A program made the position numbers and the translations under genes. Positions 42,601-59,249 of a stretch of DNA of 64,000 bases are shown here, one piece after another; the stretch's first letter is position 1, and the number at the start of each line of letters is the position of its first letter. This DNA is from a virus. Taxonomy: Duplodnaviria; Caudoviricetes. The stretch lies in IMG/VR virus record IMGVR_UViG_3300042451_000960; one strand, 5' to 3'. The notes under the pieces were generated by a model. That model was given only the letters and a program-made list of their open reading frames with translations. It did not search any database and had not been told where the DNA came from.

Positions 42601-43257
42601 TTATTTCTTTAATTTAATTTTCCAATATGTACCAAAACCAACATAAGGTGAGAATGAACCATTAGTTCCATCGGTAGTTCTATTATTTACACCCAAACCA
42701 AATTGATAAATTTTATCTTTTTTAGTTTTTAATATTAGACCAGCTCCAACTGCAGATACATAATCTTCTTTGTTAAACCCAGCATTCAAACCATAATAAA
42801 GTTGTGCTTTTGCAGGTTCTTTAACAATAAGTTCTTCTTTAATTGTTCTTTCTTTTACTTTAGCATCCCAAGTTCTACCCAAAATTCTATTCTTTGTGAT
42901 AGTATCGGTAAGAGCAATAGTTCCTAATCCACCATCTAATACTAATGTATCTTTATAGATAATTTTAGCTAAGTAATCTTTAAGAATAGCTGCACTATCT
43001 ACATTTACCAATTCTTTAAGAACTAAGGTATCTACATCAATTACTTCATGTACAATATCTTTACCTTTTTTAGTTACTGTTTTAATCTTTTCAACTTCTA
43101 CAGTATCAATTGTATGTTTAATAACCTCATATTTTTTACCATCAATTCTGATAGTTCTTCCACCTGGCATTACTCCACCTGGATTAAACCATTGTAAAAG
43201 TATGTAGATGATTAATGCTGCAATAGCAATGTTTTTAAAATTAACAAATTTTTTCAT
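42601..43257 (-). CDS. N-terminally membrane-anchored periplasmic protein (possible spanin-like lysis component)
   Basis: One hydrophobic helix IAIAALIIYILLQWF, followed by a beta-rich C-terminus. Confidence 0.6.
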   Translation of the reverse strand: MKKFVNFKNIAIAALIIYILLQWFNPGGVMPGGRTIRIDGKKYEVIKHTIDTVEVEKIKTVTKKGKDIVHEVIDVDTLVLKELVNVDSAAILKDYLAKIIYKDTLVLDGGLGTIALTDTITKNRILGRTWDAKVKERTIKEELIVKEPAKAQLYYGLNAGFNKEDYVSAVGAGLILKTKKDKIYQFGLGVNNRTTDGTNGSFSPYVGFGTYWKIKLKK

Positions 43258-43275
43258 AAGACGTGTTTTTATGTG

Positions 43276-43284
43276 TATAAATAT
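43276..43284 (-). promoter_or_regulatory. Phage-specific promoter motif ATATTTATA
   Basis: Intergenic, upstream of the ATG at 43257. Confidence 0.65.
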
Positions 43285-43293
43285 TAATTTGTT

Positions 43294-44652
43294 TTAAAAT
43301 ACCATCTTTGAACCAATTTGGAAGTTGTTCATCAAATTAAATTTAGGTTCAAAGGTCATAGCTCCTCTATACGAAGTTGATAGAGCAAATCGTTTACTAA
43401 GTTTATAATCATATCCTAACCCAATTATAGCACCAGGTTTTCGTGTTACTGAACTATTTCCTGTCAATGTATTCCATGCTATCGGTGATTGCATTAGGAA
43501 TAATTGAGGGGTTAGTGTAACCTTTCTACTATATTGAAATGGTTTCATCCAAAATCCAACTGCAGATGCACTTAGGGATACATCATAACCACCCTCACCC
43601 ATTCTAGGCATCATTAGGGTAATTACACCCACATTATAACCAAATGTTCCGTACTTAGGATGTGGTTTGATGTAGGTATATCCATTAAGGTTCATTAGAG
43701 TTCCTTTAAGGTACGCAAATGTAGTTCCGTATGAATGTATCGCATTTAATTTACCTTCATCAAAATCCATCTTAGTAACCCCAGCACTCAATGCGAATTG
43801 GTTTAGGGTACTCCAAATAAGTGCGGTAGCTGAATATGATTTATCACCCATAAGAGATGATTTAGAAACTCCCACACTCATCATTACAGCATATCTACCT
43901 TCCATATCTTCCGTACCAGCCAAATCAGATGCTAACATCATTGGGTTTGCTACGGATTTCTTTTTTTCTTCTTTTTTCTTTTCTTCCTTCTTCTCCTCTG
44001 ACTTGGATTCTTCTTTCTTTTCTTCCGATTTGCTTTCAGATTTGGATTCCTCTTTTGATTCTGACTTGCTTTCTGATTTGCTCTCTGATTTTGTTTCAGA
44101 TTTAGTCTCTGTTTTAGTTTCAGTTTTGGTTTCGGATGATGAACTTGATGATGAAGATGAACTACTTCCCGATGAAGACGATGAAGAACTACTACCAGAT
44201 GAAGGTGGTGCCGTTGTTGATGGTGTTGATGCAGCTGCTGCGCTTGCACTACTACTTGCAGCGGTAGAAGCCGATGAACTAGCTGCCGAACTTGCAGCAC
44301 TACTTGCAGCCTGTGATGCTGCTTGTGATGCTGCTTGTGATGCTGCTTGAGCAGCTGCTTGAGTTATTGTTTGCTGAACTACTTGATTTGTAGGACATCC
44401 CATTGTTGAATATGCTGTATAAGTTGCGGTTATCCAAACTTGAACCGCACCTGCCATTACTTCCTGTGGTGAGAATACTCTTATTTGATTATAGAAAGAT
44501 ACTGTTGCAAATCCGTTTGTGATTGTAGTGGTTGCTATTTTAATTTCACCAGTACATTTATCTTTATAGGTTTGCGTATAGGTTTGTCCTTCAGCTTTCC
44601 AGCTTACACAAACAAATACCAATATGGTCAATAGTGATAATAATTTTTTCAA
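43294..44652 (-). CDS. Secreted protein with an Ala/Ser/Lys/Glu low-complexity linker and a predicted C-terminal outer-membrane beta-barrel
   Basis: TTG start, Sec signal peptide, (AASQ)n/poly-Ser/(ESKS)n linker, amphipathic beta strands ending in terminal Phe. Confidence 0.75.
   Translation of the reverse strand: MKKLLSLLTILVFVCVSWKAEGQTYTQTYKDKCTGEIKIATTTITNGFATVSFYNQIRVFSPQEVMAGAVQVWITATYTAYSTMGCPTNQVVQQTITQAAAQAASQAASQAASQAASSAASSAASSSASTAASSSASAAAASTPSTTAPPSSGSSSSSSSSGSSSSSSSSSSSETKTETKTETKSETKSESKSESKSESKEESKSESKSEEKKEESKSEEKKEEKKKEEKKKSVANPMMLASDLAGTEDMEGRYAVMMSVGVSKSSLMGDKSYSATALIWSTLNQFALSAGVTKMDFDEGKLNAIHSYGTTFAYLKGTLMNLNGYTYIKPHPKYGTFGYNVGVITLMMPRMGEGGYDVSLSASAVGFWMKPFQYSRKVTLTPQLFLMQSPIAWNTLTGNSSVTRKPGAIIGLGYDYKLSKRFALSTSYRGAMTFEPKFNLMNNFQIGSKMVF
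44312..44347. repeat. Three exact tandem copies of the 12-bp unit TGTGATGCTGCT (codes AASQ repeats)
   Basis: Read directly; lies inside 43294..44652. Confidence 0.9.
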
Positions 44653-44661
44653 AACGATTTA

Positions 44662-45501
44662 TTAGAAATTTAATCCGAGTCCGAATTGAGAATAACCTCT
44701 AATTGGGTCAGAATCAAATTTCAAAGTAAAGTTTTTGAAATCTCTGATAGCACCAAGTTTAATTGATGTAAACTTAGAATTGGATTTAGGAAAAGTAATT
44801 TCACCTACTATATCCTTACCTCTGAATAATATTCTTTCATTTCCAAAACCTATCATAGCATGTACACCAGTTCTCTTAAATCGTTTACCGGCTCCTAAAT
44901 ACATACTTCTTTTTTTAACTAAATCATTTATAAGTGGAAAATCAACTCTATCTAGTGTTCCATAAGGAAAGAAAGTTGAACGGTCTATTTCATAAGTGGA
45001 ACTAAAATCCATTACAAAATATCCTCTATTACCAATTGTGAAGAATCCACCAATTTGTCTATCAGTTGTTTTGTGTAAACCAAAACTGATAATTGGTTTC
45101 TTACCTCTTATTGTATCTCTCTTACCATCTTCGTAAACGTAAATTCTTTGTGGTTGGCGGTAGCCCCAATCATTCCAATAAAATGAAGGTGTGTAGAAGT
45201 TCCAACCAAATGCAGGTGCTCCCCACATATTCCATCTATTGAAACCCCATCCCCAACCCCAATCATTCCATAACCAAGGGTTATTGTTAATGATTATGTT
45301 AGAGCCTGGTTTCGTTTGATGTGGTCTATTAAATTCTCTCGGTGATTCATTTCTCCAACTACTTACATCGTTTCTTTGTGGAGTTGATGGTTGTACCGAT
45401 GATGTGCTTCTTTGTGGTTGTGGAGGATTACTTCTCCAATTACTAACTTGTGAAAAAGCTAGTGTTGGCACAAATGCCAATAAAAATAATAGGTTTTTCA
45501 T
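44662..45501 (-). CDS. Secreted Trp/Gly-rich protein with a predicted small outer-membrane beta-barrel
   Basis: Signal peptide MKNLLFLLAFVPTLAFSQ; WGWGWG-rich segment; C-terminal YSQFGLGLNF beta-signal-like end. Confidence 0.75.
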   Translation of the reverse strand: MKNLLFLLAFVPTLAFSQVSNWRSNPPQPQRSTSSVQPSTPQRNDVSSWRNESPREFNRPHQTKPGSNIIINNNPWLWNDWGWGWGFNRWNMWGAPAFGWNFYTPSFYWNDWGYRQPQRIYVYEDGKRDTIRGKKPIISFGLHKTTDRQIGGFFTIGNRGYFVMDFSSTYEIDRSTFFPYGTLDRVDFPLINDLVKKRSMYLGAGKRFKRTGVHAMIGFGNERILFRGKDIVGEITFPKSNSKFTSIKLGAIRDFKNFTLKFDSDPIRGYSQFGLGLNF

Positions 45502-45521
45502 AGGTATATTATTTAGTTACC

Positions 45522-45557
45522 TATAAATATAAAAAAAGGGAGTTTAATACTCCCTTT
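45522..45557 (-). terminator. Terminator + phage promoter cassette (stem AAAGGGAGT/ACTCCCTTT, U-tract, then ATATTTATA at 45522..45530)
   Basis: 9-bp perfect stem with a 5-nt loop; the first 21 nt are shared with the cassettes at 50967 and 52422. Confidence 0.8.
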
Positions 45558-45561
45558 CTTT

Positions 45562-46758
45562 TTAATTACCTTTAGATGGGAATCTAGCCCACCCATTCAC
45601 CCATATTGGTTTATCTAATTCAGGTATTACAACATCTATTTCTTTATTACTCTTACTTAATGCCAAAGTTTTAAGTTGGTCATTTGTTAGGATTGTGGTT
45701 GCTCTACTGATAAAGTTTAGCGTAGGGTTAAATGTTCCTACTGAATTGTTTTCAAATACAGAAACACCATCTTTTACGAATTGTGCAGTTTCATTACTTT
45801 CTAAACTCAATCCACCTTTCATCCATCCCCAAATTACACTATTCTTCATTGTGAATTGAGTCCCTCTCCTAAATCTTAAACCTAAGTTATGGTTTGCCAA
45901 TGCAGTTGATACATTAGGACCAACTAAAATCATATTGAATAGTTTTGGATGTGTATATGGAGTTGCAGTTGAACCCGTGCCATCATTATCACATTCAATG
46001 CCATTTCCAGCATCTCCGTTATCTACGAATTGTGGGTCTCTCTTTGCTACACCATTTGTAATAGTTCCGGTGTATCCAAAATCAAAATCAAAATCATCAT
46101 CAGCAGTTGCAAATGCATATAAGTTTCTAGCATTTACAGTTCCACCAAAGAATTCAAATGCATCATCGTTAGCATAGATAGTTTGAACATTATCAATTAT
46201 TGTTCCACTACCAACACCACCTAATGTTAATGCGTTGATTTCAGAGTTTGGCATTGAAGCAATTCCAGCGTATTCAATTCTTACATATTTTAGAACACCA
46301 CTATTATCTAAATCGTTTGTTCCACCATAAGGTCTACCAATACCACCTTCGATAGTTGGTTCTGATGTTCTATTGGTTTTTGCTCTACCCAATATTACAA
46401 TACCACCCCAATCACCAGGAGTTCTTTCACCTGCAGGTCTGCCTGATGTAAATACAATTGGTTTTGTTACAGTTCCTTCCGCAATTATTTGTGCACCTCT
46501 TTCGATACACAATGCACCCTTCTCACTTATATCAGAAATGATTGTAGTGCCAGGTTGAATGATAAGTTTAGCACCATCGGTTACATAAACATATCCTTTC
46601 AATGTCCACACTTTGTCTGCTGTCAAAGTTGTTGTTGTGTTAATAGTTCCGGTTAATGTTGTTGATGATGGAATGTTAATAGGTGCATCATCTCCACCCA
46701 ATTCTTTTTGGCAACTGAATAGTCCCAAAATTAAAATAATTCCTAATAGTTTTCTCAT
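45562..46758 (-). CDS. Surface lipoprotein with parallel beta-helix repeats (type usually encoded next to a TonB-dependent receptor)
   Basis: Lipobox LFSC followed by QKE..DD; VYVTDGAKLIIQPGT, GDWGGIVILG, DNSGVLKYVRIEYAG, DDAFEFFGG, DDDFDFDFG. Confidence 0.85.
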   Translation of the reverse strand: MRKLLGIILILGLFSCQKELGGDDAPINIPSSTTLTGTINTTTTLTADKVWTLKGYVYVTDGAKLIIQPGTTIISDISEKGALCIERGAQIIAEGTVTKPIVFTSGRPAGERTPGDWGGIVILGRAKTNRTSEPTIEGGIGRPYGGTNDLDNSGVLKYVRIEYAGIASMPNSEINALTLGGVGSGTIIDNVQTIYANDDAFEFFGGTVNARNLYAFATADDDFDFDFGYTGTITNGVAKRDPQFVDNGDAGNGIECDNDGTGSTATPYTHPKLFNMILVGPNVSTALANHNLGLRFRRGTQFTMKNSVIWGWMKGGLSLESNETAQFVKDGVSVFENNSVGTFNPTLNFISRATTILTNDQLKTLALSKSNKEIDVVIPELDKPIWVNGWARFPSKGN

Positions 46759-49232
46759 AATGTTAAATTTAATGTTAATGAAATTGTTTGTTCGTTGTTT
46801 ATTTTTATTAGATTTCGGTTTTGTAACTTTTGATAATAGATTGATGATTGGCCAAATACATCACCTACTGCCAATTTTATTTCCCCATTTTTGAGTTTAT
46901 GTAAAAGAGTTATATCCAATACATCTCTGCTGTTTTCAAATATGTCTGGGTAACCCTGAAATCCTACTGCTGATATTCTATCACCTACTCTATTGTAAGT
47001 TATGTTAAGTGTGTTTTTATTTTTGTGAATATTAACACCACCATTTATTACATAGTTTGATTGCCCTTGTAATTGTCTTTTTATTCCATTTACATTTACT
47101 TCAGAATTCATTACCGAAGTATTGGTATATACATCTAACCAACTCATTACCTTTTTACGAAACTCCAATTCAACACCATAAAGAAGTGCATTATCAGGAT
47201 TTGTATAAGTTAATAATAAGTTAGATGGAACTGAACCATCTGCTACTATTTGTTCTATCGGTCTAATGAATTGTTTACCAAATACGGATACTGAAATATT
47301 CTCTCCTGCTTTTGGATATAGTTCCCATTTCAAATCTACATTATATATGTCAGATTTTTCTAATTTAGAATTACCCAATATTTGTGCGTTTCTTACAAAA
47401 TCATAATAAGCAAAATTAGCTACTTCTCTAAATTCAGGTCTTGCCAATGTTTTACTTAATGAAAATCTATACTTTGTTTTTTCTAAATTGTAAGAAAGGT
47501 TTAATGATGGTAAAAGGTCTAAATACTCTCTATTCACATTTACTTTCTGTCCACTAAAATCTGCTGTATTAACATTGAATAGATTATACTCACCTCTCAA
47601 ACCTGTATTTAGTTTCCACTTACCCCATTCGTTTTCATACATTGAATAAAGAGAACCTAAATCAAAATCAGCAGTATATCTATCGGTATTGTTTGTTATT
47701 TCATCTAACATATCAGTTGAAAGGTATCTGAATATTCTTGCATTAAATCCTCTAATCTTTTTTAGATAACCACCACCAACTTTAATGTTACCAAACGATT
47801 TGTTGATGTTACCATTAAAACTATTCTCATCCATTACACTCCAAAAACGATATGTATCTCTCCATGCAGTAGCATAAGGTTCGTTTACACCTAATGATTT
47901 TGTAATTGGATTTACTCTATAATCGGGCTGTTCTCTGAATATAAAATTATACCCTAAATTGAAATCCCAATCTTTAAGTTTACCATCTAATTGAGAATTG
48001 ATTACAATATTATTAATGTGGTTAGATGAATTACTTAAAACATTTTGAACATTATCAAAGTTATCACCACTACGGGTTAGGTATGTATCATCTGCCTGAT
48101 AGTTTACTAATGTTTTCCAGCTATATCGATTTTCACCTAAATAAGTTAAGTTTAATAAACCATTTGTAGAAAATCTTTTTGTATATAAAATATCTTTATA
48201 ATCGTATGCTAATTCAGTTGATGATTGATAATCCTTTCTTTCAATATTATTTAGAGTAAATGTGTTTCTTACAGTTGAACTAAATAAGGAATTAAATTTT
48301 CCTTTTGTATAACCAAACGAAAGACCTCCATTTAAGTTTGGAGTAGATGTAAAGGATTCTTCCGTTGGATTGCCGAATTGCTTTGTAAATAATCTCTTAT
48401 CACCATTGCCACTAATACGATATTTGTAAGTGGATGGGAATGTGGAAGGGAATTCGGTAGCTTGAACTAACTTGAAACCTTTCGAAGTTGAAACCGAACC
48501 CCAACCACTTCCCAATGAGATATTGAAGAAATTATCGGATACTTCTTTTGTTGTAATCTGAACCAATCCACCACTCCAATCTCCCGGCTGATTTGCGGAT
48601 GCTGATTTAGAAACTATAATGTTATCAATTAATGCGGTTGGAATTATATCAAATGAAAATGCTCTCCTATCAGGTTCGGTTGATGGTAGAAGTGTTTTGT
48701 TTAGAATGGCTGAATTGTATCTATCTGCCAATCCTCTTACTAATACAAACTTATCGTTTTGAATTGTTACACCACTTACTCTTTTAAGTGCATCACCCAC
48801 ATTTCTATCGGGTGTTTTTTTAATGAATTCTATTGATACTCCATCCGATACCACATTACTATTTCGGATTGTTCTTACTACCGCTACTTCGGTTACTTTT
48901 TGAGGTGCCGCTCTAACAACAACTTCTGATAATTGTTTTGCATCATCCGCAAATACAATATCAAATGTAGTATCTGATGTTAGGTTTATTTGATTTGTGT
49001 AAGTAGTATATCCAACATAAGATGCTTTGATTTGATATACACCGGATTTTAGATTGATTTTGTATTCTGCGTTTTCATTTGATATGGTAGAAAACTTATT
49101 ACCATTTACATCTTCAAATGTAATGTGAGAAAAATATATTTTTTCCGAGTTTGATTTGGTTACACCATTTACATTTACTTGTGCGAATGAAAATATTGGT
49201 AACAATAGTAAAATAAAAAAGAAACGTTTCAT
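46755..49232 (-). CDS. TonB-dependent outer-membrane receptor
   Basis: Signal peptide; carboxypeptidase-regulatory-like N-domain (ASYVGY); plug (DALKRVSGVT...VRGLADRYN...DIIP...IIVSKS); barrel motifs (LLPSLNLSY, RPEFRE, YGVELEFRK). Confidence 0.92.
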   Translation of the reverse strand: MKRFFFILLLLPIFSFAQVNVNGVTKSNSEKIYFSHITFEDVNGNKFSTISNENAEYKINLKSGVYQIKASYVGYTTYTNQINLTSDTTFDIVFADDAKQLSEVVVRAAPQKVTEVAVVRTIRNSNVVSDGVSIEFIKKTPDRNVGDALKRVSGVTIQNDKFVLVRGLADRYNSAILNKTLLPSTEPDRRAFSFDIIPTALIDNIIVSKSASANQPGDWSGGLVQITTKEVSDNFFNISLGSGWGSVSTSKGFKLVQATEFPSTFPSTYKYRISGNGDKRLFTKQFGNPTEESFTSTPNLNGGLSFGYTKGKFNSLFSSTVRNTFTLNNIERKDYQSSTELAYDYKDILYTKRFSTNGLLNLTYLGENRYSWKTLVNYQADDTYLTRSGDNFDNVQNVLSNSSNHINNIVINSQLDGKLKDWDFNLGYNFIFREQPDYRVNPITKSLGVNEPYATAWRDTYRFWSVMDENSFNGNINKSFGNIKVGGGYLKKIRGFNARIFRYLSTDMLDEITNNTDRYTADFDLGSLYSMYENEWGKWKLNTGLRGEYNLFNVNTADFSGQKVNVNREYLDLLPSLNLSYNLEKTKYRFSLSKTLARPEFREVANFAYYDFVRNAQILGNSKLEKSDIYNVDLKWELYPKAGENISVSVFGKQFIRPIEQIVADGSVPSNLLLTYTNPDNALLYGVELEFRKKVMSWLDVYTNTSVMNSEVNVNGIKRQLQGQSNYVINGGVNIHKNKNTLNITYNRVGDRISAVGFQGYPDIFENSRDVLDITLLHKLKNGEIKLAVGDVFGQSSIYYQKLQNRNLIKINNEQTISLTLNLTL

Positions 49233-49252
49233 ATAGTTTGAGTTAGTTCCCC

Positions 49253-49261
49253 AATAACTAT
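49253..49261 (-). promoter_or_regulatory. Phage-specific promoter motif variant ATAGTTATT
   Basis: Intergenic, 20 nt upstream of the ATG at 49232. Confidence 0.45.
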
Positions 49262-49301
49262 ATTAACGTTTCTTCAAAAAAGTTAATTCAATATTATCAA
49301 A

Positions 49302-50111
49302 TTATGAAGAAATTCCACATAATGTTAGGAATTCCTCAGCATTATGTATAACATCTTCTGATTTGAACTTTCTTAACATAGAATCAGCTATCTCTTTTCT
49401 ATTGTTCATATCATCCACCATACGAAGTATTTCAGCAACACCTACAACCATATCTCTGTCGTTTTCATGCCCCTGTCCAACTTCTACTTCTTTCATAACA
49501 CCTTCTTTACATACCTTCCATCCACCACCTTTTGATTTATAGTTCTTTGCAGCCCAGCCGTTTGCATAAGCTGATGGATATACATCAAACTTCTTTTTAG
49601 CTGCTGCTTTAGATGCTGACCATTTACCTGGGTCAGTTGGACAATTCTTTTCTAAGAACAATTGCATTTTTTCTTCTATTGTCATACTTTCGTTTTTCTT
49701 TTTACCAGCACAATGTGCTTTTTGTGAGAATCCTTTTGGATTACTACAATTGATTGATTTCTTATATTTTGTACTCCACTTTTCTTCCAATCCTTCACTA
49801 GCTCCAGTCTTTACGAATGTAGGTTTCTGTCCTTTCTTTTGTTCACCACCTTTCTTACTATCACCAGCTTTGGATTGTGCAGCTCTCTTTCTTTTTACAA
49901 ATGCAGCAATACCATCTTTACCTAACTTAGCTGCTTTCTCTTTTGATAAACAAGCTGCATACGAATCTCCTTTCTCACTATCTCCACATTTACCTGCTTT
50001 CTCTCCTTTACTATTATATCTATCCCAGCCACCACCAGTAGTAGAGCCTTCACCACCTTTGCCAAACCATTTACGGAGGTCTTCGTTTACGATATTACTT
50101 AACTTTATCAA
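49302..50111 (-). CDS. Basic multi-module protein with MIKLSNIVNE leader (putative head-packaged protein)
   Basis: TTG start; small Cys/Lys-rich modules (DLRKWF..., SINCSNPKGFSQKAHC, NCPTDP...YPSAYANGW) separated by xxE junctions. Confidence 0.75.
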   Translation of the reverse strand: MIKLSNIVNEDLRKWFGKGGEGSTTGGGWDRYNSKGEKAGKCGDSEKGDSYAACLSKEKAAKLGKDGIAAFVKRKRAAQSKAGDSKKGGEQKKGQKPTFVKTGASEGLEEKWSTKYKKSINCSNPKGFSQKAHCAGKKKNESMTIEEKMQLFLEKNCPTDPGKWSASKAAAKKKFDVYPSAYANGWAAKNYKSKGGGWKVCKEGVMKEVEVGQGHENDRDMVVGVAEILRMVDDMNNRKEIADSMLRKFKSEDVIHNAEEFLTLCGISS

Positions 50112-50221: not shown

Positions 50222-50950
50222 TTACTTAGCGAATACGCCCTTTTTAATTAATTTATCTAAAATGTTTGCACAAGCTACATCCAATGCTTTCTTAGTTGAA
50301 ATACTAATTGTTGATTGGTTAAACTTAATCGGGTCTACTGAAGCATCTGAAACTAAAGTAAGTTCTCTAGTTGTTTTAGCTTCACCTAAACCAGATGCTG
50401 CTATGATTGAACCATTTTCTGCATTTGTGAAACGTACTTGTAAACCTAAACGAGTTACTAAGTTATCTTTGATACCATCTTTTAAGTTAATAGTTTCATC
50501 TTCTGATACTGAATAATCATATACTTCAATCTCTACAAAGTAATGTGCTAACTTAATATTTCCTCTACCTTCTATTTTGTTTTCTGAAATTCCAGCGTTT
50601 GATGCTTTGAATTGTTGCACCATTCTGTTTTTGATTTCAGTCTTATCTTCGGTAAATTCAAATCTATTAAGGTTATCTAAATATTCTAATACGATATTTG
50701 CAACACCCAATCCAACTCTTTTTTCTTTTAATTCAGGATACATTTCGTACACTTCTTCACCAATACCACACTTTAAGATTTGGATATACTTTTTAGGTCC
50801 TTCATAGTCCAAATAAGCAGATATATCTTTTTTCTTTTCAAAATCTGCTTTGAATTCTTCAGTCTTTGTTTTTCCTATTGTTTGAGCAGTTAGGACATTT
50901 ACACCACTCGTAATCAATAATATACCTAATAATATTAATAATTTTTTCAT
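50222..50950 (-). CDS. CsgG/HfaB-like secreted or outer-membrane protein
   Basis: Signal peptide; LGVANIVLEYL..LNRFEFTE...IEVYDYSV...LGLQVRFTNAENGSII topology resembles the CsgG family. Confidence 0.65.
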   Translation of the reverse strand: MKKLLILLGILLITSGVNVLTAQTIGKTKTEEFKADFEKKKDISAYLDYEGPKKYIQILKCGIGEEVYEMYPELKEKRVGLGVANIVLEYLDNLNRFEFTEDKTEIKNRMVQQFKASNAGISENKIEGRGNIKLAHYFVEIEVYDYSVSEDETINLKDGIKDNLVTRLGLQVRFTNAENGSIIAASGLGEAKTTRELTLVSDASVDPIKFNQSTISISTKKALDVACANILDKLIKKGVFAK

Positions 50951-50966
50951 ACATTTTGTTGTTTGA

Positions 50967-51007
50967 TATAAATATAAAAAAAGGGAGAAACGATGTTCTC
51001 CCCTTAA
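50967..51007 (-). repeat. Terminator + promoter cassette copy 1 (~41 bp)
   Basis: tataaatataaaaaaagggagaaacgatgttctccccttaa; near-identical to 52422..52461; stem GGGAGAA/TTCTCCC. Confidence 0.85.
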
Positions 51008-51008
51008 T

Positions 51009-51485: not shown

Positions 51486-51513
51486 ATATTGTAACCTTTA
51501 TTGTTTTTTATTA

Positions 51514-52128
51514 TTACTTCTTACCACCACCAGTTGCTGGGTCTTCAGTAAGTGGAATTAAAGATGGTTCTAACATTTGAGTTAGGTAATCTGATAATTT
51601 CAACATACCTTCAGTTGCTGGTAATTGCTCAGCGTGTACTTTTACATTGTATTTAGCTGAGTTGTCAGTACTTCTAGTGTTCTCTTTGTTTGTAGCTACT
51701 TTACCAGAAATTTTTGCATTCCAGCTCATACCCCAAAATCTACCACCAGCTGATACTTCAACACTGCTTTCAGTTTTTACATCACTTTTTTCTGTCTCTG
51801 AAGTTTTTACTTCCATAGCAAATTCAATATCTGCTGAAGTAATTGCTAATGAAGGAAGTGGTACTAATGGTAACATAGGAACTTTACTATAAATTTTTTG
51901 TAGTTTTTGTTCACCTGTTGCACCATCGGTTACAACTCTGTTCATTTCAACATCTAAAGCACGTGCTTTAGTTTTTTTAGTTTTCTCATCCGTTACGAAT
52001 GCTACTTCAGAAATGTATTTCCAAGTTACTTCGTTTAATTTTGCTTGACCTTTTGCCATACCAACAATCGGTGAAACAATCAAGTCTTCAATAGGAAGAC
52101 CTGCGAATTGGTCTGCGATACCTGCCAT
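51514..52128 (-). CDS. DUF2589-like protein
   Basis: FAGLPIEDLIVSPIVGMAKGQAKL...VPMLPLVPLPSLAITSADIEFAMEV...KYNVKVHA...EGMLKL. Confidence 0.75.
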   Translation of the reverse strand: MAGIADQFAGLPIEDLIVSPIVGMAKGQAKLNEVTWKYISEVAFVTDEKTKKTKARALDVEMNRVVTDGATGEQKLQKIYSKVPMLPLVPLPSLAITSADIEFAMEVKTSETEKSDVKTESSVEVSAGGRFWGMSWNAKISGKVATNKENTRSTDNSAKYNVKVHAEQLPATEGMLKLSDYLTQMLEPSLIPLTEDPATGGGKK

Positions 52129-52178: not shown

Positions 52179-52203
52179 CTCAAAATTTGATAAACCCTAC
52201 TAA

Positions 52204-52407
52204 TTATCCAAACTTTACCATTCCTTGGTATTGCTTCTTTACTTTTTCAATTTCGGCAATAGCCTCATTATATTTGTTCTTTATCTCATCATTTACACTA
52301 AAATCCAAAATAGTTTCACAATGCGGACAAGCTGAAACTGGATGTTTGATAATAAATTCTAACGTTAAATCAATTGGTTTTCTGCAAGAAGGACAGGGTA
52401 GAGCCAT
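52204..52407 (-). CDS. Small zinc-ribbon protein
   Basis: CPSC...CPHC. Confidence 0.7.
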   Translation of the reverse strand: MALPCPSCRKPIDLTLEFIIKHPVSACPHCETILDFSVNDEIKNKYNEAIAEIEKVKKQYQGMVKFG

Positions 52408-52499: not shown

Positions 52500-52766
52500 T
52501 TATCCTAGTTCTTCTTCGGAACTTTCTTTCTTCCCATCAGCTTTTTTGTTGATGTATTTATCAACTGAAGCAATGCCGAAAGAACCTAAAGTGATAACCA
52601 AAAATCCGTTGAAGATGTATTCGTTAATCAAAAGTTCCTTACCTAGCCATCCGGTGATAAGGTCTACAAACAAAGCTATAACCATCATTGTGAATGACAA
52701 GAATCCAACTACTGATTTTTCGTTGATGTCATTGTTGTCTTTAAAAAGGTCTTTAATAAATCCCAT
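52500..52766 (-). CDS. Small two-TM membrane protein (holin-like)
   Basis: Two hydrophobic helices and a charged C-terminal tail. Confidence 0.6.
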   Translation of the reverse strand: MGFIKDLFKDNNDINEKSVVGFLSFTMMVIALFVDLITGWLGKELLINEYIFNGFLVITLGSFGIASVDKYINKKADGKKESSEEELG

Positions 52767-52802: not shown

Positions 52803-53471
52803 TTAGCCTGCTTGTTCAGCATCTTCATCTTTTATTTTTCCACATTTCAAACATTCCAAGTCACCATCGTTATCGGAATCTCCCCAAATGTGTTCACATT
52901 GTCTGTGTGCGAAATATACATCAATCTTACCATCACCATCAAAGTCAATACCATCCATTACACCATCACCATCTTCATCAACTTCTACACCAGTTCTACC
53001 TACTTTTGGAGTTGGAGCGGTTACAGCGTCTGTAATTTGTGATTCAACCTTTTCTTCTTTTGGTTTGTTAGCTTCAATCAAATTGATTTCATGTGCATTT
53101 TTTGCAGCTTGAACAAATGCATCAGGAATTAATGGAGTATTATTTGGTGGAGTTACAGGCATATCAGCTGTGTTGCTTAATGATGTGCCATCTTCTTCAT
53201 CCATTTTCTGAACTAACATCTTATCCTTATCAGTATCACTAAACCAATAATCTATAATCTTACCATAAGAACCAATGAAAGCGCCTAACAACAATAAGAG
53301 AAGTTCTTTCCATTCTCCTTCTATTGCAGATTTATTAAAAATAGCAAAGAACATGCCTGCCATTATAAACATAAACCCACCTAATACCATAGCAGTAATA
53401 TACCATCTACGGCTCATCATTTTATTTAATAATTCTTTAAATCCACTTGGTGGTTGTTGATTGTTACTCAT
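52803..53471 (-). CDS. Two-TM membrane protein with DxDxDG (EF-hand-like) repeats and a C-terminal Cys/His motif
   Basis: Likely start MSNNQQ at 53471 (overlaps the upstream stop); DEDGDGVMDGIDFDGDGKID; CEHIW...CLKCG. Confidence 0.75.
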   Translation of the reverse strand: MSNNQQPPSGFKELLNKMMSRRWYITAMVLGGFMFIMAGMFFAIFNKSAIEGEWKELLLLLLGAFIGSYGKIIDYWFSDTDKDKMLVQKMDEEDGTSLSNTADMPVTPPNNTPLIPDAFVQAAKNAHEINLIEANKPKEEKVESQITDAVTAPTPKVGRTGVEVDEDGDGVMDGIDFDGDGKIDVYFAHRQCEHIWGDSDNDGDLECLKCGKIKDEDAEQAG

Positions 53472-53562
53472 TTTCTTTTCGTATTCTTTCGTTATTTGCA
53501 TGATTCATAGCCCATAATAACAAGGCTATAAAAAATAATGTAACCCCTATCTTATATCCCAT
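53464..53562 (-). CDS. Tiny single-TM protein (32 aa)
   Basis: Not in the track. Hand translation MGYKIGVTLFFIALLLWAMNHANNERIRKENE fills the gap and is coupled to both neighbours. Confidence 0.55.
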   Translation of the reverse strand: MGYKIGVTLFFIALLLWAMNHANNERIRKENE

Positions 53563-53565
53563 ATA

Positions 53566-53877
53566 TTACCACTCAGCTGGTTTCTCTTTGAACTCATCAC
53601 CTTCTTTTTTCTTAGGTTTTGGTGCTGCTTCTTTAACTGTTTCTTTTTCTTTTACAATTACAGTTTTACCACCACCTGCTGATTGTGATTGTTGGTTGGT
53701 GTTGTTAATGTTAATTACTGGTGCAGGTGCTACTGCAGGAGCTGCTTCTTCACCGCCTGTAATTTTTGTTACACCCCAAGTACCTAAGCCCATAACTGCT
53801 GTTGTTGCAACACCAATTATTGTTTTTTTCAAACCTGACCAAGTACCGTCATTTGTGCTTTCTACTTCTTCTGACAT
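53566..53877 (-). CDS. Single-TM hypothetical protein with a low-complexity tail
   Basis: 103 aa; IIGVATTAVMGLGTWGV helix. Confidence 0.7.
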   Translation of the reverse strand: MSEEVESTNDGTWSGLKKTIIGVATTAVMGLGTWGVTKITGGEEAAPAVAPAPVININNTNQQSQSAGGGKTVIVKEKETVKEAAPKPKKKEGDEFKEKPAEW

Positions 53878-53904: not shown

Positions 53905-54276
53905 TTATAACTTATTAAAATCGGTAATACCAATCATCTTACCATTAACATCATACAAACCGATACGATATGCAGATGGTGGAAAAGCGTTAGTATATAC
54001 CTTTAGTATATTATCACCAGAATTTGCGTACATAGTTTCTTTAGATACTACTCTATTAGCAATATCAAAGATTTTTATAGTAACGTTTCCAGCGTTTTCT
54101 AACTTAACATTGATTGCAACCTCTGAAGTAACGAATACTGATTGTAATTTCAAACCAGCTGCGGCTTCTATTTTTAGTTCTGAATTTGGTGTTGGTTGAG
54201 GATAAGGATACTCATCAAACTTTGTACACCCAGCGAAAATTAGTACTCCAAATAATAATATGATTACTTTTTTCAT
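53905..54276 (-). CDS. Lipoprotein consisting of a T9SS-CTD/FlgD-like Ig domain
   Basis: Lipobox FAGC + TKFDE; VTIKIFDIANRVV...G.N.L...YRIGLYD.NG. Confidence 0.7.
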   Translation of the reverse strand: MKKVIILLFGVLIFAGCTKFDEYPYPQPTPNSELKIEAAAGLKLQSVFVTSEVAINVKLENAGNVTIKIFDIANRVVSKETMYANSGDNILKVYTNAFPPSAYRIGLYDVNGKMIGITDFNKL

Positions 54277-54289: not shown

Positions 54290-54637
54290 TTAGTTTATTA
54301 AAAGTAACGTTTTACCTATTTGTTTACCACTTTCATCTTCAAGTGATAAATATAAATATTTTGATTGTAACGATTTTGTCCACATTTTTAAGGAATTTAT
54401 TCCAGTTTTACCAACTATTTTTTCTCTAATTAAAACTTGTTCGGTTTCTTTATCAGTAAGTGTTAGTGTGTATATTCCATCAATTTGTAAATTAAATTTA
54501 ATATCCTGTCCATCGGAAACTTGAGCTTCCTTTACAGAAAATATATCTTCAACTTTTGGTGGTATTGGTTCTATATCAAATTTTCTACATCCTACCAAAG
54601 TTAAACAAAATAATATTACAATTCCTATTCGTTTCAT
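54290..54637 (-). CDS. Lipoprotein, paralogue of 53905..54276
   Basis: Lipobox LVGC + RKFDIE; YTLTLTD...G.NSLKMWTKSL...YLYLSLED.SG. Confidence 0.7.
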   Translation of the reverse strand: MKRIGIVILFCLTLVGCRKFDIEPIPPKVEDIFSVKEAQVSDGQDIKFNLQIDGIYTLTLTDKETEQVLIREKIVGKTGINSLKMWTKSLQSKYLYLSLEDESGKQIGKTLLLIN

Positions 54638-56925
54638 TATTGTATTTTTATTTTAAGTGGTTTACCATCCTTATCTACAGCCTCATTTGAAGATATTGAA
54701 ATCAATCCCAAAGAATTTGGTATTTGTTTATTTAATTTAAAAATCACCTTATATTCGGTAGTATTGTCTAAAAGTTCTCCTGATGTGTTTATAGAACCCA
54801 AATTTATATATGAACCTTTATCTGTCCCAAAGTTTATGGGTGAACCAGTGGTTTTAAAATCAATTCCTGAGTACTTTAAAAAGCTGTTATCATAGTTTAT
54901 TCTAAATTGTGTTCCCACAATTAAATTTGTATTAGGACTAAACTTAATATAAGCTATTAACATATCATCTTTAATTTCCGAAATGATATATGCAGTTGGT
55001 AGTGCCGATACACTCATTGTTTTAACAGCCATAGAAGATATGGAATTTACACCATTTGCCGAATTACCACTTACTGATTGTGCCGATGAGTGCGATAGGT
55101 TTACATCACCCTTCCAAAATGTATTAAGTGTAAATGCATTAAGTAATTGAGATGAACTAAAGTTAATACCACTATAACTGTCCGAAGTGGTATTTGGGTA
55201 TGTTTGCCAATTAGTTTTTGTTATAGCATCGTATATTGATTTTGGAAGAACCTTCATAAATGATTCTAAATTATTTGCCGTTAATAATGATTCTTGTCCC
55301 AAAAGATGTCTTAATAATTTAAAACAATCTGCTTCATTAAACTGCCCATCTCCATTTACATCTGCGTTCATAAACTGAATACCAGAAGTAAATTGAGTTC
55401 CACTACTACCACCAAATATACCACCACCATCCGAAAATTCTTTGAAAGCAAGATATACATCGGTTACAGTTACTATTCTATCCAACATTGAAGAAATACT
55501 ATCCGCAGTTTGTGGTTGGAATTGAACTCTTTGTGGTTTATATCCCAATACATTTGACGTTGTTACTTCACAGGCAAAAGCATAGTTATCATATCCAGCA
55601 TTTCTGATATATGAATTAAATACTGAAGTTCCGTCCGTCAGTTTAGAAGGAATATATGGCAAACGATACTCTGCCCAATATGGATTATTACCCAAATAAG
55701 TTACAGGTCCGCTATATACATCCAATATAGAAACATTTGTAATTTGTGAAGGTTGGTGATTAGTAAACTTTCTTAAATCAATATAAAGTGTTCCCACATT
55801 ATTAAAAGTGTTTACATAAGACCATTCTACTCCACCTGCTACAATATTTGCTCCCGCTCCAACTGCAACCCTAACTGTATCAGAAAGAGAACTCATATCA
55901 ACTCTACCAATATTATTTAAAGGAGTATAATTTTGTGAAAATGGAGTCCAAACATTATTAGATTGTGAATGTGTTCTTAATGCGAATCTACTTGCTGTAA
56001 GATTGTTAAAATTAAAAGTATATTGAACCCTAAACACATCACCATTTGAATGAATAACACTATTAGAATAAAATTCAGTAAATGTTTGGTCATCAGGATT
56101 TGCCCAAGTTCCAAATTCAACTACATAAGCACAACTAAAATGATTTGGTAAATCATTCCATTGAGAACCACCACCCCATTTAGTTACTGCGTAATCTTCG
56201 TTACCACTGTTGTTTGGTTCACCACCTGCCCAATTATTATATTGTCCAACTATGTTTCCAGCAGTTTGTCCGTTTGATGTTTTGATTAAAGTTCCTGCTT
56301 CAGGTCCCGCATCAATTCTCCATTGTGCCTCAACTATTTCATCGGTTAGTGCAAACCAAATACTAGATTGTGGAACATTCGCAAATATAAAAGCATCTTC
56401 ATCAGATGAAGTAATTGTTACCAAGTATCCTTGCTGCCCTTTGAAAGTTTGTTGCGATGAAAGTAGTTTAGCATTTGAATATGTTGCACCGGTTGATATT
56501 GGTCTATAAAAGTGTCCGTTTGACGGGTTATAAAAATACCCAGTTGGATTAACAGTTGCCGATACTGATATTTGTATGTTACCTGCTGTGGCGTTTGTAT
56601 TTACTTTTAAGGTTGCCAATGCATTGTTTATATTAGCCATTGTGCCTGTAAACACCAAACGAGTTTTGTTACCGGTAAAGTTAAATCCAGATGCTGGTGT
56701 AAGACCCGTTGTTGTGCTTATGTTAAATGTTGTTCCGGCTGGTGCTTGTGGTAAACCAATAGCACAAAGGAGTGTTGCTGTTGAACTAAATCCGTTAAGG
56801 GAAAATCCACTAGCATCTTGTCCTGCTGTACTTTTAGCAAACGATTTTGGTTCGGGAGCCGTTACTGATTGCCCAAACCCAAAAATCGTTACTAAAGATA
56901 ATAAAAGTGTTAATAATATTCTCAT
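54637..56925 (-). CDS. Secreted protein: C-type lectin domain + dockerin-like + cohesin-like C-terminus
   Basis: Signal peptide; NGHFY...GYLVTITS..E...WFALTD...YNNWAGGEPNN...WND; ADVNGDGQFNEAD; GTQFRINYDNSFLKY. Confidence 0.8.
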   Translation of the reverse strand: MRILLTLLLSLVTIFGFGQSVTAPEPKSFAKSTAGQDASGFSLNGFSSTATLLCAIGLPQAPAGTTFNISTTTGLTPASGFNFTGNKTRLVFTGTMANINNALATLKVNTNATAGNIQISVSATVNPTGYFYNPSNGHFYRPISTGATYSNAKLLSSQQTFKGQQGYLVTITSSDEDAFIFANVPQSSIWFALTDEIVEAQWRIDAGPEAGTLIKTSNGQTAGNIVGQYNNWAGGEPNNSGNEDYAVTKWGGGSQWNDLPNHFSCAYVVEFGTWANPDDQTFTEFYSNSVIHSNGDVFRVQYTFNFNNLTASRFALRTHSQSNNVWTPFSQNYTPLNNIGRVDMSSLSDTVRVAVGAGANIVAGGVEWSYVNTFNNVGTLYIDLRKFTNHQPSQITNVSILDVYSGPVTYLGNNPYWAEYRLPYIPSKLTDGTSVFNSYIRNAGYDNYAFACEVTTSNVLGYKPQRVQFQPQTADSISSMLDRIVTVTDVYLAFKEFSDGGGIFGGSSGTQFTSGIQFMNADVNGDGQFNEADCFKLLRHLLGQESLLTANNLESFMKVLPKSIYDAITKTNWQTYPNTTSDSYSGINFSSSQLLNAFTLNTFWKGDVNLSHSSAQSVSGNSANGVNSISSMAVKTMSVSALPTAYIISEIKDDMLIAYIKFSPNTNLIVGTQFRINYDNSFLKYSGIDFKTTGSPINFGTDKGSYINLGSINTSGELLDNTTEYKVIFKLNKQIPNSLGLISISSNEAVDKDGKPLKIKIQ

Positions 56926-58592
56926 TATTCAATTACCAATTCTACCTTCTCACCATTAGCATCTACCGCATCGGCTAATACAAAGAAGAATAAACCAGCA
57001 GTGTTGCTTAATGGAACTTTAGGTGTGAAGATTAATTTATATGGAGTTCCTGTTTTAATTCTAGCTGTCTTTAATTGGTCAATAGAACCAAATGTTAATC
57101 TACCATCATCTTTTGTTGAGAAGTTGGTTATTGTACTTCCAGCATCAAATATTACATTATCCAAAGTTAGTTTTGTTGAGTCATAATTCATAATAACTTG
57201 CAAACCTGCTAATCCTTCTTTTGTTAAACCAGCAGTAAGAACAACTTTACCATTTTCCAATTTAGAAACAACTGAAAGTGATGCAGATTGTTCAATTTTT
57301 TCAGCATAAACATTTGATTGATTAGAAGTCATTGCCATTGTTTTTATATCACCAACTTTTAATCCATTAGCAGAATTTGTATAGTTTCCAGCTGTAATAC
57401 TAGCTGCGATAGCAGTAGTGCTAGATGAATGTGACCAATCCAAATCACCACCCCATGCAAATACCGCATCTACAGTTTGTGCAGGTTGAGTTACATATAC
57501 TCTATATTTTGCAGTTCCATCTAACCAACTCTGATTTAGTAAACCACTATTCCATCTGAAAGTTGTTGCTGTATTTGATGGTATGAATGCAAGCGATGAT
57601 ACATCTTGTCCCATCACATGCGCAAATAGATAGTAAGAATCTTTTTCAGTAAATATACCATCATCTTTGGATACGTTACCAATCTTTTTTTCTAAATTAG
57701 GATATGTAAAATAGTTTGCAGTTCCACTAATATCAGTTTGTGAATGTCCTAAGAATGCCTTATATGCATCTGATATAGTGATGATATTATTCATCCATGC
57801 TTTTTGTGTTGCAACTCCAACAAATACACCTAAACTATCACCAACTTTAACACCAGAGGTGAATATAGCCTCACCAGCACCATCCAACATTTTCGTTTGA
57901 AGTGGTTGTTGTGTCCAATCTATATCACCACTACCATCGGTTTTTAATTTCATCAATTGAACATTATGGTCACCAATGTTATATCCTTGTGGGAATAGAA
58001 CTCTTACCTTAAAGAAAGATGTATTACCAGTTACACCAGTTAGTGTAGTTTGACCAGCCGTAGTTTTAATATATGGAATGTTATTACCAGTTTGGCTATC
58101 AATTGCATAAGCATGATTCAATTTGAAAATCGCATTGTAAGTGTTTTGGTCTTTAAGAATATACTTTTGAGTTGCAATTACACCATTTATAGAAGCATCA
58201 GCTCTTTGAATTGCTAATTGACCAACGTTCCAATCATTGTTTACATTATATCCCCAAGGTGTAGCTTGATATTGTGCATAAAGTGCGGTATCCGGTGAAG
58301 CTACTGATGGAGTAAATGAATAGTTATTCCAACCTGTATAGTATGTTTGTGATTGGGTACCCTGATTAAATGTGGTTGAAACGTATGTAAGTGCTTTATT
58401 GTTAAATGAGTATCTTAACCAAAAATATCTCGGAGTTGTACCTGCTCTATCAACCGTATAAGTTACAGTTAGGGTATCACCAACTTTGTATGGTCCTGCT
58501 GATACAGATTGGTTTACGATTATTTGAGCTTCTACTTTTAATGCGAATAAGGATATAATCAATACCCCTAAAAGTGTTATTAGTTTTTTCAT
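56925..58592 (-). CDS. Secreted cohesin-like protein, C-terminally paralogous to 54637..56925
   Basis: Signal peptide; N-terminal YSFNNKALTYVSTTF and C-terminal GLQVIMNYDSTKLTLDNV cohesin-like domains; WGGDLDWSHSS. Confidence 0.75.
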   Translation of the reverse strand: MKKLITLLGVLIISLFALKVEAQIIVNQSVSAGPYKVGDTLTVTYTVDRAGTTPRYFWLRYSFNNKALTYVSTTFNQGTQSQTYYTGWNNYSFTPSVASPDTALYAQYQATPWGYNVNNDWNVGQLAIQRADASINGVIATQKYILKDQNTYNAIFKLNHAYAIDSQTGNNIPYIKTTAGQTTLTGVTGNTSFFKVRVLFPQGYNIGDHNVQLMKLKTDGSGDIDWTQQPLQTKMLDGAGEAIFTSGVKVGDSLGVFVGVATQKAWMNNIITISDAYKAFLGHSQTDISGTANYFTYPNLEKKIGNVSKDDGIFTEKDSYYLFAHVMGQDVSSLAFIPSNTATTFRWNSGLLNQSWLDGTAKYRVYVTQPAQTVDAVFAWGGDLDWSHSSSTTAIAASITAGNYTNSANGLKVGDIKTMAMTSNQSNVYAEKIEQSASLSVVSKLENGKVVLTAGLTKEGLAGLQVIMNYDSTKLTLDNVIFDAGSTITNFSTKDDGRLTFGSIDQLKTARIKTGTPYKLIFTPKVPLSNTAGLFFFVLADAVDANGEKVELVIE

Positions 58593-58598
58593 ATTCTT

Positions 58599-59249
58599 TT
58601 ACTTTTTACCAAATAGCTTTTTAATTAAGCTATCCGATGCTTTTTTAAGAGCGTTACTTAAAGATGTTTGATTGAATTTTCCACCCTCATCCACTATAAG
58701 TGTGGACATTGAAATTTCAGATGAACCTTCTTCAACCACAACCTCTTTAACTTTCTTACCTTCTTTATAAAGGATTCCATGTAACCTTACAACAGTTTCA
58801 TCTTCCCCCTTATGGAAAACTCCAATGTTTGTCTTGGTTGAAAGCACATCTAAATACACAATGTTTACTTTGAGTTTGTATTTAGAATCTTTAGATAAGT
58901 CATAACCTGCTTCTTGCAGATATTCCTCTAATATATTTTTAACACCAAAAGCAAGATTTCTATTACCTGCTAATTTACCAATTTTAACTTGATTTTCTAC
59001 CGATTCAACCCATATATGTTCTTCTTCTTGATACCATATATTATCGGGATTATTTTTGAATGTACCATCTACTCTCCACATAATTTCTTTAGAGATTTGG
59101 GTAGCCCATTCAGTTCTACCACTAAATTCCAAGAATACCATAAAGACTTGGAATGTGAATGCCAATCCTATAAAAAGACCAACACCCAATAAAAACATTT
59201 TGAACAATAACTCTTTAATGTTCAAAACAGCTGATTTAATGTATTGCAT
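58599..59249 (-). CDS. Membrane-anchored CsgG-like protein
   Basis: N-terminal TM helix; FGVKNILEEYL aligns with LGVANIVLEYL of 50222..50950. Confidence 0.6.
   Translation of the reverse strand: MQYIKSAVLNIKELLFKMFLLGVGLFIGLAFTFQVFMVFLEFSGRTEWATQISKEIMWRVDGTFKNNPDNIWYQEEEHIWVESVENQVKIGKLAGNRNLAFGVKNILEEYLQEAGYDLSKDSKYKLKVNIVYLDVLSTKTNIGVFHKGEDETVVRLHGILYKEGKKVKEVVVEEGSSEISMSTLIVDEGGKFNQTSLSNALKKASDSLIKKLFGKK

Follow-up and report, generated by a model that had tools for sequence, protein, structure and literature searches.

The window analysed here, a 64,000-nucleotide (nt) stretch of viral DNA (IMG/VR record IMGVR_UViG_3300042451_000960), comes from a large freshwater Bacteroidota myovirus, and carries between positions 42601 and 59249 (~16.6 kb, 18 proteins) a locus rich in predicted envelope proteins. 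This locus is probably a phage-owned accessory region made of independently inherited modules, whose products are predicted to reach the envelope of infected cells. Its anatomy, its conservation, the origin of its transporter pair and its promoter motif were established directly. A core centred on a CsgG-like gene (50222-50950; genes are designated by their lower coordinate) recurred in related phages, and a TonB-dependent transporter with its partner lipoprotein, a pair of DUF2589 proteins and gene 49302 were optional (6-8 of 80 core loci). The original prediction, made from the sequence of the window, had treated the ~16 kb as one system building a single structure. This part of it was not sustained, given the optional genes and a host-derived two-gene transporter cassette that lay 27 kb from the CsgG-like gene in a 326-kb relative.

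Conserved core and transporter cassette

The conserved core comprised 58599-52500, 50222 and 44662-42601. In a viral scan the CsgG-like gene was found in at least 417 viral contigs, and co-occurrence was counted in the best 80 loci centred on it (Table 1). The order 58599, 56925, 54637, (54290/53905), 52803, (52500), 50222, (44662), 43294, (42601) was recurrent. Depending on the phage, the transporter pair stood before or after 50222, and in the 326-kb complete relative 43294, 42601, 53566 and 58599 stayed beside 50222, with the transporter 27 kb away; because of this variable position the locus was described as a conserved core with inserted cassettes. A relative on a 300-kb JGI contig had the locus without the transporter and with intact junctions to phage genes. 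A minimal core was observed in 16 loci, with 58599, ~3 kb of unmatched genes, 52803, 50222, 43294, 42601 and 44662, and with no recognisable cohesin or dockerin genes, divergent counterparts of which may lie in the unmatched ~3 kb.

The full gene order and the flanking phage genes recurred in independent IMG/VR assemblies, and the whole order was kept in the five closest relatives. The transporter gene was present in 111 IMG/VR contigs (60-99% identity). The ratio of nonsynonymous to synonymous substitution rates (dN/dS) was 0.08-0.43 for every gene with suitable pairs, indicating purifying selection. In 401 sampled Bacteroidota genomes only distant relatives of 50222 were found (best 65 bits, vs. 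270-280 bits in phages), and none was found in Aquirufa; one distant homologue occurred solely on 1-2-kb contigs. The claim that the locus belongs to the phage, and is neither a passively carried nor a chimeric host fragment, was upheld by synteny in dozens of independent IMG/VR contigs, by dN/dS, and by the phage motif and terminator cassettes kept in relatives.

The transporter (46755) matched Plug (PF07715; 31.6 bits, cut-off 23.9), OMP_b-brl_3 (PF14905; 92.9 bits, cut-off 27) and CarbopepD_reg_2 (PF13715), and the lipoprotein (45562) matched the beta-helix family PF28492, in agreement with the predicted TonB receptor and lipoprotein. Against TIGR01782 the transporter gave E = 9e-50, yet remained below the family cut-off. 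It started with the signal peptide MKRFFFILLLLPIFSFAQ. Its TonB-box-like LSEVVVRAA aligned with LADVVVKTV of Aquirufa and LGEVVVTSS of Phnomibacter (motif-level evidence; a Pedobacter row, from a wrong open reading frame, was left out), and the plug was also kept in phage copies. In several loci a ~750-amino-acid (aa) transporter without the N-terminal CarboxypepD_reg domain was observed, with the TonB-box-like motif and the plug retained. No PDB match was obtained for the transporter in a single-sequence search, and no meaningful match for the lipoprotein in a profile search; the exact lipoprotein sequence had no recorded called gene.

More than 500 chromosomal relatives of the lipoprotein were found in a scan of one genome per prokaryote species. 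Of the best 80 Bacteroidota chromosomal loci, 73 had a transporter homologue directly ahead of the lipoprotein gene, and none contained any other gene of the phage locus. The nearest relative was Aquirufa esocilacus (transporter 64%, lipoprotein 71% identity), in which the genes after the pair encoded a Metalloenzyme-family protein, two PHO4 transporters, the phosphate-selective porin Porin_O_P and a Metallophos protein. PHO4 and PhoU_div genes occurred together 5-6 kb upstream in ~22 of 75 bacterial loci, as counted from clustering and Pfam on representatives; tblastn with Aquirufa queries gave lower numbers. Beside the pair in phage loci no phosphate-gene neighbours were found, only Metallophos-like matches.

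In a maximum-likelihood tree, 57 phage lipoproteins formed one clade (Shimodaira-Hasegawa-like approximate likelihood ratio test, SH-aLRT, 97), sister to Aquirufa/Spirosomataceae (100) and nested in Chitinophagaceae. Because the phage clade was single and in this position, the tree indicates one old capture of the transporter pair from an Aquirufa-like (Cytophagales) lineage, which would also be the likely host, and long retention thereafter. The lipoprotein homologue of the 635-kb phage LR745206 fell outside the main phage clade, and was therefore probably acquired separately. Two loci, on contigs binned as Azovibrio (Rhodocyclaceae) and Sphingomonadales, had transporter and lipoprotein pairs near-identical to those of Chitinophagaceae; these contigs were probably mis-binned in those assembled genomes.

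Export signals, promoter-like motifs and protein families

By hydropathy scan, an N-terminal signal, lipoprotein or membrane-anchor segment was present in 13 of the 18 locus proteins and in 5 of the 42 other window proteins (Fisher p = 8e-6), and 53566-53877 was a marginal fourteenth exported candidate; more than a dozen exported or membrane genes had been predicted. Lipoboxes were found in three locus proteins (45562, 53905 and 54290), with the Cys invariant among homologues. PHROGs gave no locus match apart from phrog_27331 on 49302. A reading of the locus as a defence system was dropped, as PADLOC gave no match. Four non-exported proteins (49302-50111, 42327-42599, 41978-42325 and 41208-41975) opened with MI(K/R)L and had an acidic residue no more than ~10 aa further on (MIKLSNIVNED, MIKLTQLNEA, MIKLKDLITEA, MIRLTNILLEH); this start may be a common N-terminal processing or targeting signal.

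All seven ATANTTAT sites that had been predicted ahead of the envelope genes were found, each within 1 nt of its predicted coordinate. Six of them lay 16-43 nt 5' of start codons; the seventh, at 59375, was in a terminator hairpin loop, with the next start 126 nt away. In the whole window ATANTTAT was not over-represented (32 copies vs. 51 ± 9 expected). Of the copies in gene orientation, 17 of 24 were intergenic (1.95 ± 1.4 in shuffled intergenic DNA; 0 of 2000 shuffles reached 17), and only 2 intergenic copies were in the opposite orientation. The motif occurred in 16 of the 26 intergenic regions of at least 20 nt, mostly 16-26 nt ahead of the start codon. As it was also present ahead of the tail-fibre gene (16804; ATATTTAT) and of the baseplate operon (36355), ATANTTAT was labelled a putative late-type phage promoter motif. 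The only intergenic instance of the host-type TAnnTTTG in the locus was inside the terminator loop that holds site 59375, consistent with the predicted lack of host-type promoters before the locus genes.

Three near-identical cassettes, each consisting of a hairpin, a T-run and then TATATTTATA, were present in the locus and kept in relatives (Table 1). Gene 42601 had its own promoter-like motif at 43277-43284, in 12 of 13 relatives. The Aquirufa homologue of the transporter had the host-type TAATTTTG just upstream, where phage copies had the conserved cATAGTTATTGGGGAACTAACT. This 21-nt element upstream of the phage transporter (49233-49261) was conserved across phages (17 loci) despite diverged intergenic surroundings; it exceeds the promoter motif in length, and may include a regulatory or 5'-untranslated-region element.

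The family of 50222 was small (197 representative clusters among 1.8 billion proteins). Its profile matched CsgG chains in the PDB at E = 3e-4. The structural model of 50222 (predicted local distance difference test, pLDDT, 79) had CsgG as all of its top 18 Foldseek matches (E = 1.6e-7; TM 0.53-0.57), and by VIA it matched CsgG with Z 12.8 (root-mean-square deviation, rmsd, 2.9 over 173 residues), PelC being the next family (9.9). Pfam CsgG (PF03783) was matched by 16 of 40 family members (best E = 1.9e-17); the window protein itself had no Pfam match. Its signal peptide was of type I (...VNVLTAQ / TIG, without Cys), and most phage homologues likewise had no lipobox; more distant family members had a G-C lipobox in the consensus. 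Two CsgG-like proteins had been predicted, and the assignment stood for 50222-50950 and failed for 58599-59249, which shared only short motifs with the 50222 family (hhalign probability 7%). For 58599 there were weak Lipoprotein_16/LptE/CsgG-like signals only (PF03923, E = 4e-4, below cut-off), its clusters were viral-only, and its matches to eukaryotic 'cohesin SA-2' were spurious.

In 54637, Lectin_C (27 bits) and, at residues 470-560, Dockerin_1 (PF00404; 24.7 bits, cut-off 22.9) were above the Pfam cut-offs. For residues 22-187 of the AlphaFold2 (AF2) model of 56925, solved cohesins made up all of the 14 best structural matches (Z 12-13, with rmsd 2.7-3.0 over ~129 residues). The two proteins cross-matched each other in homologue searches. 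The predicted cohesin/dockerin-like pair was supported, with the cohesin module a candidate. The two lipoproteins predicted to resemble C-terminal sorting domains had only sub-threshold Pfam matches and no PDB match in profile searches, and this assignment was given up: 53905 matched DUF3244 (E = 2.4e-4) and Por_Secre_tail (E = 2.3e-3; 18.6 bits, cut-off 27) below cut-off, and 54290 had no Pfam match. A Type IX C-terminal sorting domain was rejected, as the sub-threshold Por_Secre_tail match was in 53905, a 123-aa lipoprotein and not cargo, and the C-termini of 56925 and 54637 matched Cohesin instead. A TssN match of 52500 (E = 4e-4, below cut-off), as a lead to a type VI or contractile system beside the baseplate genes, was also dropped, because it covered membrane helices only. 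Profile searches with 58599, 44662 and the C-terminus of 43294 gave no meaningful match, and these three proteins, 42601 and both small lipoproteins had no recognised family in the searches made. The profile searches gave no confirmation of the two predicted beta-barrels (44662 and 43294), and an outer-membrane barrel in 44662 is at most putative.

The DUF2589 pair was 92-100% identical in amino acids in relatives whose transporter showed only 80-87% identity. About 990 near-identical metagenomic clusters of the pair were observed. It had no defence-system match, and neither the literature, the Atlas nor the homologue search gave a functional lead for DUF2589.

Table 1. Features of the locus by descending position, with predicted products and, where counted, presence in the best 80 core loci
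Position	Strand	Feature	Evidence or conservation	Core loci
58599..59249	-	First core gene; predicted N-terminal membrane anchor and alpha/beta domain		51/80
56925..58592	-	Predicted secreted; cohesin-fold N-terminal domain, cohesin-like C-terminal domain	Signal peptide; model fold match	44/80
54637..56925	-	Predicted secreted; C-type lectin domain, type I dockerin, cohesin-like C-terminus; paralogue of 56925-58592	Pfam	42/80
54290..54637	-	Small predicted lipoprotein, lipobox LVGC; paralogue of 53905-54276	Cys invariant in 19 homologues	
53905..54276	-	Small predicted lipoprotein (123 aa), beta-rich domain, lipobox FAGC		46/80
53566..53877	-	Small predicted single-pass membrane protein with Pro/Ala-rich and Lys-rich tail		
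52803..53501	-	Predicted membrane protein; Asp-rich calcium-binding-like repeat, Cys/His cluster	Usually adjoins CsgG-like gene	58/80
52500..52766	-	Small protein, two predicted membrane helices		
52408..52499	-	Terminator hairpin and T-run, TATATTTATA promoter-like motif directly after	Conserved in 8/8 relatives	
52204..52407	-	Zinc-ribbon protein accompanying DUF2589 pair (optional cassette)		
51009..52128	-	Tandem pair of DUF2589 proteins lacking signal peptides (optional cassette)	PF11655, E = 3e-30 and 6e-13	6-8/80
50951..51008	-	Terminator and promoter-like cassette before CsgG-like gene	Motif in 25/30 relatives	
50222..50950	-	CsgG-fold predicted secreted protein, anchor gene of conserved core	Profile, Foldseek, VIA and family Pfam matches	
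49302..50111	-	Lys-rich non-exported protein, MIKL-type N-terminus (optional insert)	phrog_27331	6/80
49233..49301	-	Promoter-like ATAGTTAT and conserved TTGGGGAACTAACT element upstream of transporter		
46755..49232	-	TonB-dependent transporter: signal peptide, CarboxypepD_reg domain, TonB-box-like motif, plug, barrel		8/80
45562..46758	-	Pectate-lyase-like beta-helix lipoprotein, transporter partner (4-nt overlap)	PF28492; invariant lipobox Cys	
45502..45561	-	Terminator and promoter-like cassette	10/13 relatives	
44662..45501	-	Predicted secreted; Trp-rich segment, beta-rich C-terminal domain ending in F		46/80
43294..44652	-	Predicted secreted; N-terminal domain, disordered ~140-aa Ser/Ala/Lys/Glu-rich linker, conserved 218-aa C-terminal domain ending in F	Most constant neighbour of CsgG-like gene	71/80
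42601..43257	-	Predicted signal-anchored beta-rich protein	Own promoter-like motif	25/80

Proposed mechanism and alternative explanations

The localisations of the products, their timing ('late in infection') and all functions were inferred. The core products would be exported by the Sec and lipoprotein pathways. The CsgG-like protein would form an oligomeric outer-membrane pore or ring, and the dockerin-bearing lectin protein would dock on cohesin domains, giving a surface glycan-binding complex that would alter what the infected cell exposes or sticks to. In the second module, the host-captured transporter and the surface beta-helix lipoprotein, placed under a phage promoter and long kept, would scavenge a phosphorus-containing substrate during infection. 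The zinc-ribbon protein and the two DUF2589 proteins (51009-52407) would form a third, cytoplasmic module.

The phosphorus assignment followed from an analogy. In Flavobacterium johnsoniae, the phoBR operon includes the 'PUSIV' pair, made of Fjoh_0545 (PF07715, PF13715 and PF14905) and the adjacent pectin-lyase-fold lipoprotein 'FII' Fjoh_0546, and depletion of phosphate induces both genes more strongly than most others (Lidbury et al. 2021, PMC8115612). Because of this type of architecture and of the bacterial phosphate-gene neighbourhood, the phage pair was read as a putative auxiliary gene pair for phosphorus scavenging at the outer membrane. It resembled Fjoh_0545/0546 in the same three Pfam domains followed directly by a pectin-lyase/beta-helix lipoprotein, and in bacterial homologues placed among PHO4, PhoU_div, Porin_O_P and Metallophos genes. 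It differed in being phage-encoded, with a phage-type promoter and away from phoBR or other phosphate genes, and in the phage variants that lacked the N-terminal CarboxypepD_reg domain.

A more specific form of the core function can be put forward only tentatively. In this form, the core would be a self-assembling glycan-binding surface scaffold, with lectin-dockerin subunits on cohesin subunits, tethered by lipoproteins and exported with the aid of a CsgG-type pore. Such a scaffold would make the infected cell adhere to particles or to host cells nearby ('sibling capture'), or would shield its receptors; in a subset of the phages, addition of the transporter pair would also let the same cell scavenge phosphorus. 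If so, a virus would be using a cellulosome-like architecture to re-engineer the surface of its host.

Several observations weighed against the proposed reading. Phosphate-transport neighbours were present at only ~30% of bacterial loci, and the likeness to Fjoh_0545/0546 was one of architecture as described, and not of compared sequences. No CsgA-, CsgB-, CsgE- or CsgF-like partner was found in the locus by Pfam and PHROG scans, to which distant analogues may have been invisible. The cohesin call for 56925 came from a model built on a shallow alignment (pLDDT ~75 for the domain that matched, 56 for the whole protein), and Pfam Cohesin was below cut-off for the C-terminal domains of both 56925 (E = 0.019) and 54637 (E = 8e-4). 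The eight-gene operon from 58599 (58599-52500) had no ATANTTAT promoter in the window, although 5 of 11 relatives had one there. Metatranscriptome contigs from three studies partly covered the transporter and lipoprotein genes, the DUF2589 pair, 52500/52803 and 50222 (90-99% identity), but such contigs may contain DNA, cannot rank genes, and show presence in RNA libraries only.

Among the alternatives, superinfection exclusion or receptor masking by a module including the transporter was considered unlikely. The transporter would replace or mimic the host receptor, the lipoproteins would block it, and progeny would also be kept off cell debris. TonB-dependent transporters are common phage receptors, and Llp of T5 is a small lipoprotein that blocks FhuA, which gives this alternative a precedent. 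The phage transporter was just 64% identical to the closest host copy, and surface remodelling against superinfection has already been proposed for bS21 phages (PMC9723584). However, purifying selection on the TonB box, the plug and the partner lipoprotein fits a working transporter, and the lectin and cohesin proteins would be left unexplained.

A lysis or exit device was judged quite improbable. Under this explanation the CsgG-like pore, the small membrane proteins and the lipoproteins of the core would disrupt the envelope in the manner of pinholins, spanins or disruptins. In format, proteins 52500 and 53566, with one or two membrane helices, and lipoproteins 53905 and 54290 are similar to holins and o-spanins. 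The window had no recognised holin or spanin of a canonical type, and a lysis hypothesis has been published for phage CsgG (PMC9004378). Large lectin, cohesin and dockerin proteins, however, are foreign to known lysis systems, and the lipoproteins, of 115-123 aa with a folded beta domain, are unlike short proline-rich o-spanins. No coiled-coil i-spanin partner was seen, and the lysozyme-like genes (36389-38722) were within the baseplate module and not beside the locus.

It is quite improbable that the whole ~16 kb forms one integrated system, in which the transporter, the CsgG-like proteins, the cohesin/dockerin proteins and the barrels would build a single late surface structure. The genes were contiguous, on one strand and tightly packed, with common promoter and terminator cassettes and the whole order kept in the five closest relatives, which speaks for this reading; the transporter and DUF2589 pairs, however, were missing from most core loci, the position of the transporter relative to the CsgG-like gene varied as described above, and the bacterial pair was a stand-alone cassette without other locus genes. 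A host fragment, wrongly joined in assembly or recently and passively carried, was suggested by the close Bacteroidota chromosomal homologues of the transporter pair (64-71% identity to Aquirufa) and was effectively refuted by the recurrence of the same phage junctions in many independent IMG/VR assemblies and in the 300-kb JGI contig, 15 lake-water DNA runs that each contained over half of the words sampled from a 10-kb locus stretch, the separate old clade of the phage copies with phage promoters, the low scores of the CsgG-like gene in Bacteroidota genomes, and the uniform GC across the window (27-37%).

Phage context and relation to known systems

The minus strand carried every called gene, from 430 to 63685. 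Baseplate wedge proteins were encoded at 33380-35857 (~40% identity to Microcystis phage Mel-JY01, Flavobacterium phage immuto and a 484-kb uncultured phage), and a primase gene and a fused SbcD-SbcC gene were present. The latter (17039-20185) encoded a single 1048-aa protein that joins nuclease subunits resembling SbcD and SbcC. At 8667-16781, a probable giant tail fibre of 2704 aa carried a Peptidase_S74 intramolecular chaperone domain at its C-terminus, together with a weak CBM_5_12 match. A group of cytidylyltransferase, glycosyltransferase and methyltransferase-like genes (1793-8338) is possibly a second surface-glycan remodelling function of the same phage. Directly upstream of the core module, 59422-59787 encoded a DUF5856 protein matching the PHROG family 'starvation-inducible transcriptional regulator'; its position was retained in nine relatives.

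Freshwater Bacteroidetes 'bS21 phages' are known (PMC9723584), and because ribosomal protein S21 was encoded in all three CheckV-complete relatives (209, 274 and 326 kb), the phage was placed in or near this group; phoH was observed in two of the three. No deposited phage matched at the DNA level by megablast. Homologues of single genes were found in hundreds to thousands of metagenomic clusters.

Pelagimyophages (2020; PMC7029224) and the OM43 phage Melnitz (PMC9004378) carry CsgG and CsgF in 'curli operons' with hypothetical proteins, for which roles as an uptake pore, in fibre-mediated 'sibling capture' and in lysis timing have been proposed (PMC7029224, PMC9004378), lysis timing being the role proposed for the CsgG of Melnitz. 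As there, the window had a CsgG-family protein within an accessory cluster that is conserved in large aquatic T4-like phages with S21 and deformylase-like genes, and no CsgA or CsgB. The hosts of those phages are Proteobacteria, whereas here they are Bacteroidota, no CsgF was recognised, and the partners were cohesin-, dockerin- and lectin-bearing proteins, small lipoproteins and beta-rich secreted proteins. The CsgG-like protein of the window was also not a lipoprotein, and belonged to a phage subfamily with only distant bacterial relatives.

A preprint of October 2026 catalogued 1,603 outer-membrane proteins in huge phages, with beta-barrels in 18% of such phages, including 22-stranded TonB-dependent receptors. 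Many of its phages were from freshwater, phylogeny pointed to exchange with hosts, and phosphate-acquisition genes were among the neighbours; its text had no beta-helix lipoprotein partner, cohesin/dockerin or CsgG-like proteins, and did not resolve such a locus into modules. With cohesin-dockerin assemblies, cellulosomal or not, the locus shared a type I dockerin sequence and a putative cohesin-fold domain (Z 12-13), and differed in being phage-encoded, in its C-type lectin domain, and in having no glycoside hydrolases or other carbohydrate-active enzymes.

Cyanophages carry the phosphate auxiliary genes pstS and phoA, and receptor-blocking lipoproteins of the T5 Llp type are also phage-encoded. 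Like these, the genes of the locus would act at the host envelope in infection, in phosphorus acquisition or receptor blocking; the protein families and the cell compartment are different, and the likeness is in logic only.

Phage genes that remodel the host envelope, phage CsgG clusters and phage outer-membrane proteins are thus already known. As far as was found, neither a phosphate-type transporter cassette nor cohesin, dockerin and lectin partners of phage CsgG have been described in the literature. If the transporter pair works as proposed, the phosphorus auxiliary genes of phages would extend from periplasmic and inner-membrane functions (pstS, phoA) to TonB-powered uptake at the outer membrane, and the phage pair would be a natural handle on a phosphate-regulon pair of Bacteroidota. 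Phages of this group are abundant in lakes, their likely hosts, Aquirufa-like Cytophagales, are common in freshwater, and cultivable Aquirufa strains bring the question within experimental reach. The CsgG/cohesin/dockerin/lectin core links to the 'curli operon' of pelagimyophages, and suggests that large aquatic myoviruses in general remodel the surface of the cells they infect.

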